DNA of 64,000 nucleotides from a virus (IMGVR_UViG_3300028832_000007:6459-70458); one strand, 5' to 3'; shown: positions 3,176 to 53,716, counted from the stretch's first letter. Notes: generated by a model not told the origin, from the letters alone. Made by a program: numbers and translations.

Positions 3176-3207
3176 TTTGCTATTTAGGTACAAAAAACAT
3201 ATATTTG
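3176..3207 (+). promoter_or_regulatory. Bacteroidota sigmaA-type promoter for lysis module
   Basis: TTTG (3176-3179), 20-nt spacer, TATATTTG (3200-3207). Confidence 0.75.
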
Positions 3208-19147: not shown

Positions 19148-19192
19148 TTGTTTCTGATATTATATCTTGTTTCTATCAAAAATTATGCCATA

Positions 19193-24605: not shown

Positions 24606-26762
24606 TCAAATCAAATCGTAAGTTGGTTTATTGATTTCGTATTCTTCGGCTCTGATAACGATATCGTCGTAATCGCAGTCTCCGTAGTGTAATTCGGCAT
24701 AGCCATTGTGGTGGTTCTCGGTGTTATGAATGCCTGCCGAGTAATACTCCTCAAACATCTCCTCATCTTCGATGAACGCCTCGTCTACTCTTGCTACAGC
24801 ATCGCCAAACTCTTCATAAACCCCAAGAATGATGAAACTATCGTCATCTGCAGTGTGACGAACACGCGTCACAACCCATACTTTCTTTGCCATAACTATT
24901 CTCCTATTACTTGTTTAACAAAATCACTCCTGAGGTACAATACGAGCACCCAGTAGCCGCCGTCCAGCAACTCATCGTTGTAGTCGGCCTCGAAGTCGCA
25001 GCCGTCCAGGAGAGCCTGCATGCCGTACGGGTTGTCTTCCTCATCAGTCTCAATGTCGTAGAGCTTTACGCCCCACTTATCCCTGTTTTCCCACAACTGC
25101 TTGAATGCGTCCTCGTGGGAGCAGCAGTCAAAGGAGTGTCTTTCGGGCTGTCCATCCCCAGGATAGCCAACCTCCCAAAATGCTAAGATTGTCATGGTCT
25201 ATTCAGTTTTGATTAGTTCTGTATGCGTGTTCTCGAACTCTGTCGGGTCGTCTTCATACTCCCCGTTGTTGTAGCGGTCCTGGGCGATCATGCTTGCATC
25301 GTCCTCATTGTCCGCCTCTACTGTGATGTCCACCCAGCTGCGGTAGTGGAATCGGTAAGTGTATTTTGCCATAACTATAATACTATTTGATATCCATAAC
25401 ACCAGTGCCCGTCTGAAAGACCGAACACGCAGTGCTCAATGCTTTTCACATCAATCTCATTCACCATCGTTCCGTACTTTTGACCCGGAGCGCGGCAGAG
25501 TTCAACCCATTTAATCTTTGCCTGTTTTGGAGTATCCGCACCCCAACCTCCACGATAGGTTACGGTATCTCCAATCTTAATAGTTTCCATTGTCTACTCG
25601 GTTATTGTCCCAACACTTCACATCTTGTAATTTCCACTTCATAATGCGTATGGCTCCATCCTTCAGCCATGCTATACAGACAGAAGTAATCCGGCTTGTT
25701 CTTGTCAATCTTCATATCTTCGTCCGAATCTTCCATGTAATCGGAAATAGCCTCCTCCTTAGCACCGCTGAGGGACTTCCTCGCATCATCCAGATTCGAG
25801 AACACATACGGCTCGTGATCGAATTGCTCGAAATCAGAGACCTCATTAATTGTAACTACGTAAACTTCCATAACTATTCTTCGTCTATAAATTCCACTCT
25901 CATCCCCACGATCTCTCCATTGGTGTTCTTGCTGATGTAAAGGTCATAAAGTCCTTTGCCGTATCCGCTCGCCGAAACAACGCCCTTATTGTCAATAGCC
26001 CCCCAACGCTTACTCAAACCTTTAGAGTCTAGAGTTATATCGCAGATCCTGCGGTACCAGCTATCGTCTGGTCGATGCTCTTTATAGTAGTCGAAATCAA
26101 AGAATCCACACTGACGGCTATCGACGCCAATGCTGCCCGACTCGAACTTAGATATTTCGCCTTCCGGATAATCCTCGTGACGGGCAATCAGTTCTGCTAT
26201 ATAGCCTTCTTTAGTTCTTTTCACCTCTACTCCCCATACTCCTGGAAGAACATTCGACAGCTCTTTCTGACACCATATCCCGACCTCATAACAAGGATCA
26301 GAGACGATTACTTTCTTTCCTAAAATTATTTTTTCCATTGTTAGTCCTCCTTTCGTGTTACTTTGAAATGTTCACAGGCTTCGTAGAGAGCGTCAGAGAA
26401 AAGGTCGTCGAAATAGTTTCCGACATACGATGCGATTTTCTCCATCAGAATATCTGGAATGTTGTCCCCATTAAACCCGAGATTGTTGATAACGTCGCGA
26501 TCAACATCCATGATCACGAAAATTTCCTTCTTGTGCTTCATAATATGATAAATTAAAACATATCGGGATTACTCATGTAAATCTCGTATTCTATAACTTT
26601 CTTGCGAGCTTCTTCCGGATCCGCAAAAGCGGATTGAAATCTACGCTTATCCCTTCTAGGGTTGGCGGCATATTTACCCCTTCCGTCCCTATCTTTCTTT
26701 GCGATAAGGTGACATGGAATAATCTCGTAATTATGCACCGCCCAAAATACCTGTCGGGCCAT
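24606..26762 (-). CDS. Cluster of small acidic hypothetical genes (24606-24893, 24896-25195, 25199-25372, 25375-25590, 25602-25871, 25874-26338 with SDPCY motif, 26341-26541, 26553-26762)
   Basis: Contiguous coupled ORFs with high D/E content. Confidence 0.65.
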
Positions 26763-32017: not shown

Positions 32018-32116
32018 GGTTCACTCCATTTTTACCACCGCCCCACCCGTTTACGGGCAGGGCACGCACCGAGCCTGAGGTCTGTTTATACTCGCTCGGT
32101 CGAGTGCTGGCTGGGC

Positions 32117-33146: not shown

Positions 33147-33581
33147 TTTATCATAGTATATTTTATAAAAAAGTTACGATTTTATTGATTATCAATGAGT
33201 TACAAAGACGAAAAATTGCATAGTAAATATATTGTAACGTTTTAAGTGCTTGTATATCAATATGTTAGCAATCTTGCAGTTTTGAATGATTCTAATTTGC
33301 TATATATACCTATATTATAGCGGAAAGGCTTCCCCGCTTGTGCTAAAATATGGCACAAGCTGCCACCCCCTATTAAAACGTTTTAATAAACCATGTTGCA
33401 AAATTGAATGTTTCCCTTTGATTCTGCAACACATTGAGCGTTAAGGGGGTAAGGGGTATTTAACTACCATAGCGAACCACGTACGGTGGAATCCTGAAAT
33501 TTTTTTTTCTTGCAAAAACGGCCCTGTAGGTACGTAGGGTGGCGATTGGGTCAAACCCGTCCCTGAGAGTGTCTGAGCCGG

Positions 33582-33890
33582 GGTGACGGAAGCGTGGTGA
33601 CGGGTGACGCAAACGTGTATGTTAATTGGACCAACCGTCACCTTTTGCGTCACCACTTAACATACTATATAATAAATACTTACAACCTTAGGTGACGGAG
33701 TGAACTTTGGTTTAAATAAACTATCAATTGAAAAAAGTTAAATTTATGTAGAAAATTTGCTAAATTTGCGTCACTGCGTCACCCGACCGGCAGAAATCCC
33801 GTATTTACGGGGCTGAGGGGCCGATTTTTGAGGTGACGCATCGAAAAAAGCTAGCGTCACCGGTGAAGCATTTGCGTCACCAGCGTCACC
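33582..33890. repeat. Iteron-like GGTGACG/CGTCACC array around an AT-rich core; putative replication origin
   Basis: GGTGACG at 33582, 33596, 33603, 33691, 33832; CGTCACC at 33636, 33648, 33777, 33855, 33875, 33884; AT-rich 33655-33768; directly upstream of the primase/helicase genes. Confidence 0.75.
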
Positions 33891-33904
33891 GGCACGGAAT
33901 TTGC
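33890..33904 (+). promoter_or_regulatory. sigma54-type -24/-12 promoter motif (one of a series)
   Basis: CGGCACG-GAAT-TTGC, 14 nt before ATG 33919; related copies at 38144, 38680, 45440, 48048 (+) and 19190, 23107, 53681 (-). Confidence 0.65.
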
Positions 33905-37200: not shown

Positions 37201-37628
37201 TTAAGAAATTCAAGGAATGGTGGTATTTCCACGTCAAGAACCCGGTCGTAAGGAAAGGAGAGGCCGGCGGATTCACATGGGTGTTCAGGAAGTTCGGGCT
37301 GGAGGTCAGGACGCGGAGCGGCAATTTCAGGGCGCAGTGGACTGCGGATGAGCATCCGTACGGGTATCTGGCATATTCGGACGGGAATGAGAACATTCAC
37401 GGCTTCGCCATGACGGTATACATGGTGTCGAAGCTGCTGACTACGGAACCCAGGTTCGCGGAAGATATCCAGCTGGCTATCAAGGCTTACGAGAAGAGGC
37501 TGGATGAGAGTCTCTCCGTGGTAGATGACCCCGTGGAGGAGGAAATAGCCCTGGCGGAGATGAAGGACGTGCAGGAACAGGTAGAAAAAGTTCGCAGAAG
37601 GAGGAAGAGGAATGGAGATAAAGGTTAA
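37197..37628 (+). CDS. Hypothetical protein
   Basis: 143-aa coupled ORF. Confidence 0.7.
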   Translation: MIKKFKEWWYFHVKNPVVRKGEAGGFTWVFRKFGLEVRTRSGNFRAQWTADEHPYGYLAYSDGNENIHGFAMTVYMVSKLLTTEPRFAEDIQLAIKAYEKRLDESLSVVDDPVEEEIALAEMKDVQEQVEKVRRRRKRNGDKG

Positions 37629-38049
37629 GAAGCTTATTCCGGAGGCCGTGGTGCCGACGAGGGCGCATGCGAGTGACGCCGGGTTTGACTTGGTGGCGGT
37701 CAGCAGGGTGATAGATGAGGACAGTGCGGTCGTTTACGGGACCGGCCTGGCGTTCGAGATCCCGGAGGGATATGTCGGGCTTGTCTTCCCGAGGAGCAGC
37801 GTCGCGAAGAAGGATATGGTGCTGTCGAACTGCGTGGGAGTGATTGACTCGGGATATCGGGGAGAGGTGATGGCGAAGTTCAAGCTGATAGACCCTCTTA
37901 TCGTGCATGAGAAGTATCATTGGTATGAGATCGGTGAGCGTATCTGCCAGATTGTGTTCATGAAGTTGCCGGAAGTGGAGCTTGTCGAAAGCGACGAGCT
38001 GAGCGAGAGCGACAGGGGAACTGGCGGATATGGCAGCACCGGGAAATGA
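37612..38049 (+). CDS. dut: dUTPase (trimeric)
   Basis: AGFDL, PRSS, GVIDSGYRGE, RICQ, RGTGGYGSTG. Confidence 0.97.
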   Translation: MEIKVKKLIPEAVVPTRAHASDAGFDLVAVSRVIDEDSAVVYGTGLAFEIPEGYVGLVFPRSSVAKKDMVLSNCVGVIDSGYRGEVMAKFKLIDPLIVHEKYHWYEIGERICQIVFMKLPEVELVESDELSESDRGTGGYGSTGK

Positions 38050-38052
38050 TTA

Positions 38053-38144
38053 TTTGGAAAATATCGGGATAATCCATATATTTGTACTTAGTTGAATTTC
38101 CATAAGTAGTAGGATGCGGTCCGCTGTGAAGCGTACCGCATTTT
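38053..38144 (+). ncRNA. Stand-alone small RNA unit: promoter, ~25-nt body, terminator
   Basis: TTTG-N20-TATATTTG (38053-84), body TACTTAGTTGAATTTCCATAAGTAGTAGG, hairpin ATGCGGT-C-CGCT-GTGA-AGCG-T-ACCGCAT-TTT. Confidence 0.65.
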
Positions 38145-38184
38145 GGCATGAAATTTGTATGGATTATATAAAATTTTTTAAGAT

Positions 38185-38496
38185 ATGAACGATTTTACGC
38201 TAAAATTCCATTCTGGGGACCATGTGTTCCTTTTTAACAGTATTTCTCTCTCTATCGAGGAGGATGACGTGTACGGAGCCCTGTTCTTGCCTGTACCTGT
38301 GCCGGGTGTGCTTCAGGAGAGCGGGAAGAGCATCAAGGAGAAGATCGAAGCCGGTCAGTTGGCGGTAAAGCAGCAGTATCAGCTGTGCCAGCACCAGGGC
38401 GTGGTGGATGCAGACATCCTTTTCGGTACCCGCGAGGAGTGTATCGCGTTTTACGCGGAGTTCTTCAACCGTGGCGGCGCGATCGTCTCAGAATAG
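38185..38496 (+). CDS. Hypothetical protein
   Basis: 103-aa ORF. Confidence 0.7.
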   Translation: MNDFTLKFHSGDHVFLFNSISLSIEEDDVYGALFLPVPVPGVLQESGKSIKEKIEAGQLAVKQQYQLCQHQGVVDADILFGTREECIAFYAEFFNRGGAIVSE

Positions 38497-38503
38497 GCGT
38501 TTT

Positions 38504-38590
38504 TCCCGGGTAGCCCAACCGGTGAGGCCCTGGCGAGCCCCGTTTATGGGGCGGACCGGTAAGATGCGGGTTCGAGTCCCGCCCCGGGAG
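38504..38590 (+). ncRNA. tRNA-like RNA 1 (no canonical anticodon loop)
   Basis: 7-bp acceptor TCCCGGG/CCCGGGA, TAGCC D arm with GG, T arm GCGGG-TTCGAGT-CCCGC; anticodon arm extended. Confidence 0.8.
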
Positions 38591-38643
38591 CTCTGAGTGA
38601 AAGATTTTTCATAAGCAGTGGTTGTTATACATGTGTTAAGTTG

Positions 38644-38673
38644 AAGCGGGTCGCTGCGAAGTGCCCCGCTTTG
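38644..38673 (+). terminator. GCGA-capped terminator
   Basis: AAGCGGG-T-CGCT-GCGA-AGTG-C-CCCGCTT-T. Confidence 0.75.
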
Positions 38674-38728
38674 TTCTTATGGCACGGAATTTGAAGGATT
38701 TGTTGTTAGTTTATAAATATTTTCGTTT

Positions 38729-48712: not shown

Positions 48713-48764
48713 CTAAACCAATGTTGGGTTTAGGTTTTCATAGTACAGTGCTTTTTTTATGTCG

Positions 48765-48798
48765 AGTGGGCTCCGCAGTGAATGCGTGGCTCACTTTT
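48765..48798 (+). terminator. GTGAA-capped terminator
   Basis: AGTGGGC..CGCA-GTGAA-TGCG..GCTCACT-TTT. Confidence 0.7.
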
Positions 48799-48826
48799 GT
48801 TTTTTAAAAAGTATTTCATATATTTG
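48796..48826 (+). promoter_or_regulatory. sigmaA-type promoter for packaging genes
   Basis: TTTG-N19-TATATTTG, 4 nt before ATG 48831. Confidence 0.7.
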
Positions 48827-50153: not shown

Positions 50154-50194
50154 GTAACTTCTGTTTTTTCTTCATCATATAAGTTATTCCCGCG

Positions 50195-50225
50195 AGGCCC
50201 CCTGCAGTGATGTACGGGGCCTTTT
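50195..50225 (+). terminator. GTGA-capped terminator
   Basis: AGGCCCC-C-TGCA-GTGA-TGTA-C-GGGGCCT-TTT. Confidence 0.8.
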
Positions 50226-50252
50226 GTTATAATAATTTTTTTTATATATTTG
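50223..50252 (+). promoter_or_regulatory. sigmaA-type promoter for TerL/portal
   Basis: TTTG-N18-TATATTTG, 6 nt before ATG 50259. Confidence 0.65.
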
Positions 50253-52027: not shown

Positions 52028-53605
52028 ATGAATATCGGTGAACACTTAAAAAAGGACTATTGGGTGCGCAGAGTCACTCCTGATAGCGTTGGTGCGTATC
52101 CCCCATGCGGGAACAATTTGGGATATAGGAGGCCGAAGACCGGAGGTTTCGGCGTAGGCTATGTCAACCTGACGCAGGACACGTTCCTGAACGAGATTAA
52201 CGCTTCTGCTCATGAAATAAATTCGAGATTCATGAGCCAGCGTCCAATTTATAAGACAGAAAAGGATGCTGATGGCAAGACTAAGTATGTCTTGAATGGC
52301 TTCGATGACGTGGAAACTGTCGCCCTGGCCATTCAGGAGTTCATCGTCGGAAAGAAGATTTCCCATCTGACGGGAGATAAGTTCTGGGTGGCGAGCGAGG
52401 ATAAGGACGAGGAGGCGTTCCAGAAAGTGGAGTCCTGGATGGACTATGCCGGTTTTTGGGATGCATGGGTCGAGGCGGTTTCATATTGCGAGCGCGAGTG
52501 TGATTCTGCTCTATATTGGTGGTATGACGGGAATTCGCTCCAGTATGAGGTCTTTGCTTATGAGAAAGGGGACACCCTTTATCCTGGCATAGACGACGAG
52601 GGGCGCCCTGTGTTATATAGAGCCTATTCATTAAACGGGAAAAAAGCCGTGGACGTTTTTTCGGTGAAGTCTCGCGAGACATGGGTAAAGGTCGATACTG
52701 ACGAGGACGAAGGGAAAGCATGGTTTGACCAGGTCCTGAAGAGGCTTAAGGGATTTAGGTTCAACGAGGTCAGTGAAGATGGCTATCGCCTTATTTCCAG
52801 AAAGGATGCCCAGATCGGTAATGATGTTCTGCAAGTTATATATTTCCGTGTCCCGGATATTGCTACGGGTCCTGTCCAGGATTGTATCGTAAAATATGAA
52901 CGGGCTCATAGCTATATTGCTAATGAGGTGAAAGATAGCGCATTCCCGATTTTGTTCCTGAAAAGCGAGAAAATCGTCAATCTTCCACCAACGAGAATCA
53001 ACGGTAAGACTATCGGTGTAAAGGGAACGTCTGATAGTCTGGCTCATAGCGACGCCAAATTCTTGGCTCCGCCGGACGCTTCGAATATAGCGAAGACGAA
53101 TCTCGATACGCTGTGGAGCAATATCCTCCGAGGGTCTCTGACCTCCTTGGTCGAGCCTGTAGATATCCGGCAGGGGTCGGACAGCAGCACGACGATTAAG
53201 ATCATGTTCGCTCCAGATGTCGAATGGTGTCAGAATCGCTGGAAGTTCTATGCGAAGCCCGTCCGTCAGCTCGTTGAGGTGTTCAAGCGTCTTGTGGGTA
53301 AGGCCGAAAAAGATATTAAGAGATATGGTGATCTAAAGATATCTTGCGGACAGAATATTTGGCTTCCGTCTAACGAAGCTGAGCGCATAAAGATTGAGCT
53401 GGATCAGTATTATGCGGAGGTTAAGTCCAGGAAGGCCGTAATGGCGGATATCGGAAACTCTCATCTCGGAGATGCTGAACAAATCATGAAGGAGAAGGAG
53501 GAGGAGAAAGCTCTCGAGGCGAAGTATAACGTAAAGACGGCCGAGAATAATCCTGCCGTTCCTGACGTCACGAACCAGGCTAAGAAACAGCCGAGAAATA
53601 AATGA
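52028..53605 (+). CDS. Portal protein
   Basis: 525 aa, immediately after TerL and before the scaffold/capsid genes. Confidence 0.75.
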   Translation: MNIGEHLKKDYWVRRVTPDSVGAYPPCGNNLGYRRPKTGGFGVGYVNLTQDTFLNEINASAHEINSRFMSQRPIYKTEKDADGKTKYVLNGFDDVETVALAIQEFIVGKKISHLTGDKFWVASEDKDEEAFQKVESWMDYAGFWDAWVEAVSYCERECDSALYWWYDGNSLQYEVFAYEKGDTLYPGIDDEGRPVLYRAYSLNGKKAVDVFSVKSRETWVKVDTDEDEGKAWFDQVLKRLKGFRFNEVSEDGYRLISRKDAQIGNDVLQVIYFRVPDIATGPVQDCIVKYERAHSYIANEVKDSAFPILFLKSEKIVNLPPTRINGKTIGVKGTSDSLAHSDAKFLAPPDASNIAKTNLDTLWSNILRGSLTSLVEPVDIRQGSDSSTTIKIMFAPDVEWCQNRWKFYAKPVRQLVEVFKRLVGKAEKDIKRYGDLKISCGQNIWLPSNEAERIKIELDQYYAEVKSRKAVMADIGNSHLGDAEQIMKEKEEEKALEAKYNVKTAENNPAVPDVTNQAKKQPRNK

Positions 53606-53613
53606 TACTATCT

Positions 53614-53646
53614 AAGCCCGGGCTCGCTCTGAGTACCGGGCTTTTT
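53614..53646 (+). terminator. Intrinsic terminator after portal
   Basis: AAGCCCGG...CCGGGCTT-TTT. Confidence 0.8.
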
Positions 53647-53686
53647 ATAGAAAGGTGCCAAATTTTTCAAAAATCGTGCCAAAGAT

Positions 53687-53716
53687 TTTGTTTTTTATAC
53701 TTTTTTATTATTTTTG
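53687..53716 (+). promoter_or_regulatory. sigmaA-type promoter for head genes
   Basis: TTTG-N18-TATTTTTG. Confidence 0.6.

Follow-up and report, generated by a model that had tools for sequence, protein, structure and literature searches.

A gene-less promoter–terminator unit on a lineage-specific phage insert, a candidate small-RNA unit

Analysis of a 64,000-nt window of a virus genome (the whole stretch studied here, bases 6459–70458 of a 70,458-bp IMG/VR record with direct terminal repeats) uncovered a promoter-to-terminator unit that lacks a conserved gene and occupies a 94-nt block directly behind the dUTPase gene. Its mini-gene anatomy is more than chance, and the unit is assembled from the phage's own standard parts, namely the strongest type of host sigma-A promoter and a member of a GNRA-capped terminator family. 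The explanation that fits best, which we hold with about even confidence, is that the segment is a stand-alone gene-less transcription unit on a lineage-specific insert, moron-like in organization, with 29 nt of non-coding cargo. The unit and its neighbours are:

37612–38049, + strand: dUTPase gene (Pfam PF00692, 3.6e-22; PHROG 135).
38050–38143, + strand: 94-nt block of promoter, body and terminator, present only in the window's narrow clade.
38053–38056, + strand: −33 element TTTG of a Bacteroidota sigma-A-type promoter, recognized by motif and kept by close relatives.
38077–38084, + strand: −7 element TATATTTG, invariant where readable in relatives (L095 has a scaffold gap).
38085–38113, + strand: body, the predicted single-stranded AU-rich 5′ tail of the RNA, 29 nt, unpaired in the fold.
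38114–38144, + strand: intrinsic terminator, with a hairpin at 38114–38141 and a T-run to 38144 (fold, z = −3.65).
38144–38159, + strand: sigma-54-like promoter of ORF103, TGGCAT-N5-TTGTA (motif TGGCAY-N5-TTGNW), conserved.
38185–38496, + strand: ORF103, a conserved phage protein of 103 codons with 19 homologues.
38504–38591, + strand: tRNA-like gene, next after ORF103 (ARAGORN tRNA-Ala GGC, 88 nt).

Genes point leftward from approximately 32.5 kb and rightward from approximately 33.2 kb, and the unit belongs to the rightward arm, where 135 nt separate the dUTPase gene from ORF103. The dUTPase gene is the last of a replication operon that encodes, in order, a D5-type primase-helicase, a DUF6371 protein, a DnaA-C-like HTH protein, a protein without assignment, and the dUTPase. 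ORF103 has no Pfam or PHROG match; its AF2 model (pLDDT 88) is a small beta-barrel with a C-terminal helix, for which a comparison with solved structures (PDB) gave no match below E = 0.001. The best Rfam match of the tRNA-like gene is tRNA-Sec at just 18.7 bits, and in two relatives (L078 and L091) 37 nt of the anticodon-arm region are missing while the acceptor and T arms are retained. Near-identical contigs come from bovine and other gut-type metagenomes (rumen or bovine for those that carry the block), and the promoter type points to Bacteroidota as the probable host. Elsewhere in the genome, the − strand at 32033–32105 encodes a Pistol ribozyme close to the start of the leftward operon (Rfam RF02679; score 59.3 bits, gathering threshold 34.5). 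Dense direct and inverted GCGTCACC/GGTGACG repeats occupy 33540–33900, just 5′ of the sigma-54-like motif at 33886 and an HNH endonuclease gene; because they lie at the strand switch and GC-skew minimum, they may represent origin iterons or an array of enhancers. A role for the unit as an origin-of-replication primer was rejected, since these iteron-like repeats, like the strand switch and the skew minimum, sit at 32–34 kb.

The promoter at 38053–38084 is a perfect TTTG-N20-TATATTTG consensus, and the Bacteroidota promoter of the original prediction is present where it had been placed. Motifs of this type occur eight times in the window against 0.65 expected (12-fold enrichment), five of the eight preceding gene starts, and the full motif arises by chance in the 135-nt gap with P = 0.007 (200,000 shuffles). 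The extended −7 region CATATATTTG is common to the promoters at 3176, 38053 and 48796, the first of which is followed by a gene start after 19 nt and the last after 4 nt; ATATATTTG is common to the promoters at 38053 and 50223, the latter differing from CATATATTTG only in the preceding base. Within the rightward replication and recombination arm (33–48 kb), this is the sole consensus sigma-A promoter in any intergenic gap. Both boxes are intact in eight of the nine block-bearing relatives, the ninth (L095) having a scaffold gap there, and the spacer measures 19 or 20 nt across close relatives despite a spacer indel and roughly 7% divergence.

The terminator that had been predicted behind a short body is also borne out, the body measuring 29 nt. 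The hairpin consists of a 7-bp stem, a 1×1 mismatch, a 4-bp stem and a GUGA tetraloop, followed by TTTT, and the predicted RNA 38088–38146 folds at −20.8 kcal/mol (z = −3.65), a value that none of 200 shuffles reached. Its first 22 nt are unpaired in the fold, and no alternative (anti-terminator) fold was found for it. In Rfam, the predicted RNA matched no family at the gathering threshold, and relaxing the search to E ≤ 10 yielded noise alone. Two hairpin substitutions in relatives (38132 C>T and 38135 A>G) convert Watson-Crick pairs to G·U pairs and keep the pairing on the + strand only; by our own estimate the chance of this is approximately 0.02–0.07, which lends modest support to a hairpin acting in + strand RNA. 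Separately, a palindrome at 38085–38108 has a single occurrence in the window.

Judging from the usual distance to the −7 box, host RNA polymerase would start a few bases past it, at approximately 38086–38091. It would then copy the unstructured AU-rich tail and stop at the hairpin and U-run, releasing an RNA of roughly 55–60 nt that comprises about 24 single-stranded nucleotides followed by the terminator stem-loop. Because a host-type promoter runs straight into a stop hairpin, an RNA of about 55 bases is probably made, although the U-run has just four residues before GG, which could make termination incomplete. We consider it probable that the promoter fires and that its transcripts meet the hairpin, and we lean, with somewhat less assurance, towards most of them ending at it as a distinct short RNA; an independent function for this RNA is a tentative proposition, on balance doubtful. 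The same hairpin would also terminate the upstream replication operon, and the sigma-54-like promoter fused to its tail would restart transcription for the next gene. If the RNA is functional, its anatomy suggests base pairing by way of the single-stranded tail, as in GibS-type sRNAs of Bacteroides, and the most plausible seed would be the invariant 3′ half of the body, 38096–38113.

The view of the segment as self-contained holds at the level of sequence anatomy, and small proteins do not account for it. The original prediction of no sense reading frame is literally incorrect, since an ATG at 38114, within the hairpin, opens a 24-codon frame whose end overlaps the next gene as ATGA, and a nested 9-codon frame ends in the same overlap with ORF103. 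A 1-nt deletion removes the end of these sense frames in L092–L094, L096 and L097, five of the seven close relatives read there, and the sense frame is therefore not a conserved one. On the other strand, the 17-codon frame differs in length in five relatives, and a 63-codon frame (37958–38149) overlaps the dUTPase gene. The sense 24- and 9-codon and antisense 17-codon frames were accordingly rejected as small proteins, frame or length not being retained among close relatives. Leader-peptide attenuation, in which a ribosome on the ATG at 38114 would mask the hairpin, was likewise rejected, the stop/start overlap being lost in most relatives.

The block lies between the dUTPase stop codon on one side and the sigma-54-like promoter on the other. 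In five relatives with the same dUTPase-to-ORF103 synteny (L019–L021, L081 and L087), the stop codon abuts the TGGCA of the sigma-54-like promoter, with no promoter, body or hairpin between them, so the block is a lineage-specific insert. Its carriers are nine contigs (L078 and L091–L098) of at least 90% nucleotide identity. Since relatives that lack the block also lack a terminator here, promoter and terminator arrived together, and their order, the reverse of that in the genome's usual cassettes, indicates that the block is a unit in itself and not a mere junction. Its absence from all relatives beyond the narrow clade marks it as young and dispensable for this phage group. Searches for related DNA found no homologue of a 151-nt region around the unit in four related 70-kb genomes, only a dUTPase match to an Acinetobacter phage in a phage database, no exact match of a 19-mer of the body in IMG/VR, and seven matches of the invariant body 18-mer, every one in an unrelated context.

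Among block-bearing relatives, the 3′ half of the body (38096–38113) is invariant and the 5′ half varies, a contrast for which the overall divergence of about 7% is too low to show selection. The changes in the body are 38087 C>T, 38095–96 GA>TT and a 1-nt insertion before 38114. Divergence in the 135-nt gap is 6.6–7.4%, against 2–13% at third codon positions of the flanking genes; the gap thus diverges about as fast as third codon positions, and no purifying selection is visible. The bin 38000–38099, which takes in the 5′ part of the block, is among the fastest-changing spots of the region, with 10–11 differences per 100 nt against 1–3 in most flanking bins. Mosaic hot spots among near-identical relatives fall at 37800–38050 and 38600–38699, with flanks at 1–3 differences per 100 nt. 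The first includes the 3′ half of the dUTPase gene, a patch that adjoins the block and differs from L092 at 24–35 positions per 100 nt, with dUTPase alleles of 153 and 145 codons; the tail before the hairpin of a second cassette (B, below) shows 12–15 differences per 100 nt. An operator formed by a 10-bp inverted repeat that flanks the unit (38069–78 and 38158–67) was considered and rejected, as the repeat is not retained in L078 or L096.

The unit's hairpin is one of five homologous terminator hairpins in the genome, four of which have their T-tail fused to the next promoter. The other four members, all at operon ends, are:

38638–38695, + strand: cassette B, a homologous GCGA-capped hairpin with a sigma-54-like promoter (38680–38695).
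48760–48826, + strand: cassette C, a family hairpin whose T-tail forms the −33 TTTG of the sigma-A promoter at 48796 (from sequence).
50189–50252, + strand: cassette D, a family hairpin fused to the sigma-A promoter at 50223, its T-tail forming the TTTG (from sequence).
53611–53649, + strand: hairpin E of the same family, at the end of gene 52028–53605 (from sequence).

The unit's hairpin and that at 38646–38669 in cassette B are identical at 18 of 24 positions; cassette B lies 530 nt downstream of the unit's hairpin, past the tRNA-like gene, and its hairpin follows a tail about as long as the unit's, in which no promoter is present. In the unit's own hairpin, the last T of the terminator tail is the first T of the sigma-54-like promoter at 38144. 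The genome's rule is terminator, then promoter, and the unit is the exception, in that a sigma-A promoter stands 29 nt 5′ of such a cassette.

Sigma-54-like promoters of the type TGGCAY-N5-TTGNW are the second standard part, with 10 matches in the window against 0.53 expected (approximately 20-fold), mostly ahead of rightward genes. Sites lie at 33886, 34409, 38144, 38680, 41435, 45440, 48048, 48539 and 49358 on the + strand and at 19175 and 53666 on the − strand, and the motif heads many rightward replication and recombination genes. It also occurs in each of four related 70-kb phages (G001–G004) and stands before almost every ORF103 homologue read, regardless of which gene lies upstream. No phage gene for sigma-54 or for an enhancer-binding activator is encoded. 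An enhancer-site role for a 15-mer common to the bodies of the unit and cassette B was rejected: its three matches against 0.58 expected were counted with a pattern derived from those same two copies, and the 15-mer decays in relatives. As a further observation, the 10-mer ATGGATTATA has four exact copies on the + strand (34441, 38159, 40991 and 41939), at least two of them at gene starts, and 11 copies with at most one mismatch against 4.25 expected; the copy at 38159 pairs with 38069–38078 as a 10-bp inverted repeat that is lost in some relatives.

In two of the related phages, at another locus, hairpins of this family terminate sigma-A-promoter units whose bodies are unrelated (G001:C1:4772–4890 and G003:C1:21402–21500, both on the + strand). 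Gene-less promoter–body–terminator units that share this hairpin family therefore recur in the phage group. The spacers of these two promoters contain a TGGCAY-N5-TTGC motif, and a further ORF-less unit with a sigma-A promoter, short body and strong terminator is found at G003:C1:58434 (− strand).

A stand-alone unit has to be weighed against three other accounts of the same segment. The one that survives best, which we regard as unlikely but credible, is an empty cassette or scar of module shuffling, in which the parts once flanked a small gene, or were joined by cassette recombination, and the short RNA has no function. A genome with five or more homologous terminator hairpins, of which four are joined to promoters, would suit such shuffling, and comparable repeats (PeSL) are substrates for gene gain and loss in T4-type phages (PMC2839356), but no relative with a gene between these promoter and terminator parts was found with the body 19-mer or the invariant 18-mer. 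The first ATG lies 29 nt past the promoter, exactly at the foot of the hairpin, a leader length as at the promoter at 53687, as if it were the remnant of a lost gene's start, and the block adjoins the mosaic dUTPase patch. Change in the body is no slower than at silent sites, which also agrees with an empty cassette, whereas the promoter boxes and hairpin pairing are intact in all haplotypes where readable, an observation whose weight is limited by the low divergence. Finally, all more distant relatives lack the unit, as a scar would predict, yet similar gene-less units recur at another locus in relatives.

A second account, which we consider quite improbable, treats the hairpin as a leaky promoter-proximal terminator: the sigma-A promoter would be a second, host-only input to the operon of ORF103 and the tRNA-like gene, throttled by the hairpin, with the short RNA as a by-product of termination, like the 6S RNA of lambda pR′-tR′. 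The short U-run makes read-through plausible, and this sigma-A promoter is alone among the intergenic gaps of an arm whose promoters are otherwise sigma-54-like. As the phage has no genes for sigma-54 or an activator, an entry point that uses host sigma-A could matter early in infection. Elsewhere in the genome, however, sigma-A promoters that serve genes stand after the terminator, the predicted RNA has an unpaired tail and no alternative fold, no Q-type antiterminator was found in the genome, and the leader reading frame that translation-coupled read-through would use is not conserved.

Very unlikely, in our judgement, is a third account, in which the segment serves only as the replication operon's 3′ untranslated region, a terminator with a silent or fortuitous promoter-like motif. 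Its attraction is that the gap is 68% A+T and that the sister cassette B, too, has a comparably long tail in front of its hairpin, with no promoter in it; the low chance frequency of the full motif in the gap, an extended −7 box identical to that of working-looking promoters, retention of the motif where read in close relatives with compensated spacer length, and the absence of the terminator from relatives without the block all argue otherwise.

The preferred reading, a stand-alone unit, leaves the role of its RNA to be considered, and here the original prediction had gone further, proposing a trans-acting sRNA that would block translation of a host mRNA, perhaps that of a defence gene, by pairing over its start codon. 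As a special case of the stand-alone unit this is highly improbable. The letters are as described: the reverse complement of the body reads as an ATG with following codons, and the 17-codon antisense frame exists. As a signal the resemblance fails, because an antisense ATG occurs in 32% of shuffled bodies (and one with at least four open codons to the end in 16%), so that looking like a translation start carries no information in itself. The sRNA-like anatomy of the unit and the position of the CAT within the invariant part of the tail (38096–38113) speak for start-codon pairing, as does the precedent of GibS in Bacteroides thetaiotaomicron, whose long single-stranded 5′ seed binds mRNAs at their start-codon regions (PMC7366714); against it, two of the codons originally read (38095–96) are altered in most relatives, and the complementarity searches gave no excess over controls.

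The best duplex with 137 phage start windows, at the start of the ORF 25602–25871 (− strand), has −17.5 kcal/mol, which 39% of 150 dinucleotide shuffles equal or better. As a class, phage start windows pair no better than gene interiors or shuffled bodies, and the longest complementary run anywhere in the phage with G·U allowed, 16 nt, is reached by 19% of shuffles. A 22-mer with up to three mismatches gave 26 matches in 401 evenly drawn Bacteroidia genomes against 26 for a reversed-pattern control, and the exact antisense 18-mer gave 35 matches across one genome each for 185,579 species, both patterns including positions that vary among relatives. A target in the phage's own host may still exist but is unsupported. 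The 18-mer matches are scattered over Flavobacteriales, Planctomycetota, Polynucleobacter, archaea and others; none extends, and most are not at gene starts. In everything searched, therefore, start-region complementarity does not exceed controls. Together these results leave the unit a plausible but unproven small-RNA candidate, with the anti-start-codon claim at chance level.

A wider conjecture, which we rate as a long shot, is that such units are mobile small-RNA genes: rumen Bacteroidota phages would trade gene-less modules built on a shared GUGA-capped terminator with differing single-stranded bodies, and the invariant 17–18-nt tail of this one would bind an mRNA of the host, perhaps over the start codon, reprogramming the cell at an early stage of infection.

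The regulatory RNAs of phages that infect Bacteroidota have hardly been explored. If the RNA is real, the unit is a compact candidate that is easy to test, with a clean promoter and terminator on a 94-nt insert that some strains carry and relatives lack. The firmer gain is architectural, in that operon junctions are made from a few reusable parts, one terminator family with sigma-A or sigma-54-like promoters, and gene-less units appear to arise from the same junction parts. This bears on how phage modules are shuffled and on what share of the 'sRNA-like' mini-genes in metagenomes are functional and what share are by-products. A phage group that runs a class of genes from sigma-54-like promoters may also merit a look of its own.

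Several known systems resemble the unit in part. Phage morons are autonomous promoter–gene–terminator inserts, with a factor-independent terminator, between genes that are adjacent in relatives, reportedly described by Juhala et al. 2000 and Hendrix et al. 2000. The block is moron-like in having its own promoter and terminator and in lying between genes that are adjacent in relatives, but its cargo is not protein-coding and amounts to just 29 nt between promoter and terminator. The oop RNA of phage lambda is a 77-nt antisense to cII, and the lambda 6S RNA is made from pR′-tR′, a unit with a promoter-proximal terminator that needs the Q antiterminator. In both, a terminator lies within tens of bases of the promoter, as it does in the unit, and a discrete small RNA results. 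Unlike the cis-antisense oop, the unit has nothing encoded opposite it; it shares the promoter-proximal terminator of pR′-tR′, whereas a search of the 70-kb genome for Q-family antiterminators (PF06530, PF03589) gave no match at E ≤ 1; an antiterminator of an unrelated family may be present. DicF, a prophage sRNA directed by base pairing at the start region of ftsZ, sets the precedent for a start blocker carried by a phage and has a proven target; for the RNA predicted here the searches made found none.

GibS is reportedly 145 nt long, against about 55 nt predicted here. Like the unit, intergenic sRNAs of Bacteroides, such as GibS (Ryan et al. 2020, PMC7366714), have a sigma-A promoter (TAnnTTTG/TTTG), an intrinsic terminator and low G+C content, and GibS shares a long single-stranded 5′ part, which in its case is the seed that pairs with start-codon regions (PMC7366714). 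The hallmarks of validated Bacteroides intergenic sRNAs are their own start site, an intrinsic terminator and a single-stranded 5′ seed (PMC7366714). The unit has its own promoter for the host's primary sigma factor (TTTG-N20-TATATTTG, retained in relatives), an intrinsic terminator at the 3′ end with a UUUU run and substitutions that keep the pairing, and no conserved reading frame on either strand; target complementarity in the phage and the sampled genomes is at control level. It further differs from GibS in being phage-borne, with no target found in the phage or the sampled Bacteroidia, and from GibS-type sRNAs in that the 5′ half of its tail varies even among near-identical relatives and its RNA is predicted from sequence.

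Architecturally, the phage's cassettes parallel the PeSL (promoter-early stem-loop) elements known from T4-type phages, composites of terminator hairpin and host-type promoter that recur between genes at points where related phages differ in content (Arbiol et al. 2010, PMC2839356; Comeau et al. 2014, PMC4122927). Here, too, a related promoter/stem-loop composite is repeated in gaps, with five homologous hairpins of which four are promoter-fused, and a mosaic boundary lies beside the block. At the site itself, the block is absent in relatives, ORF103 and its promoter stand behind various upstream genes, and the mosaic patch ends at the block; any recombination between the phage's cassettes is putative. 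In PeSL the stem-loop is upstream of, within, or just before the start of its promoter, which still serves a gene. That arrangement holds for 38114–38159, where the promoter would still drive the downstream gene; the unit's sigma-A promoter, unlike that of a PeSL, would fire into the hairpin, and the phage's cassettes use two promoter classes. Joining a moron-like insertion, a PeSL-like hairpin and the promoter, terminator and single-stranded 5′ tail of a Bacteroides intergenic sRNA, the unit is a candidate small-RNA unit of a known kind.
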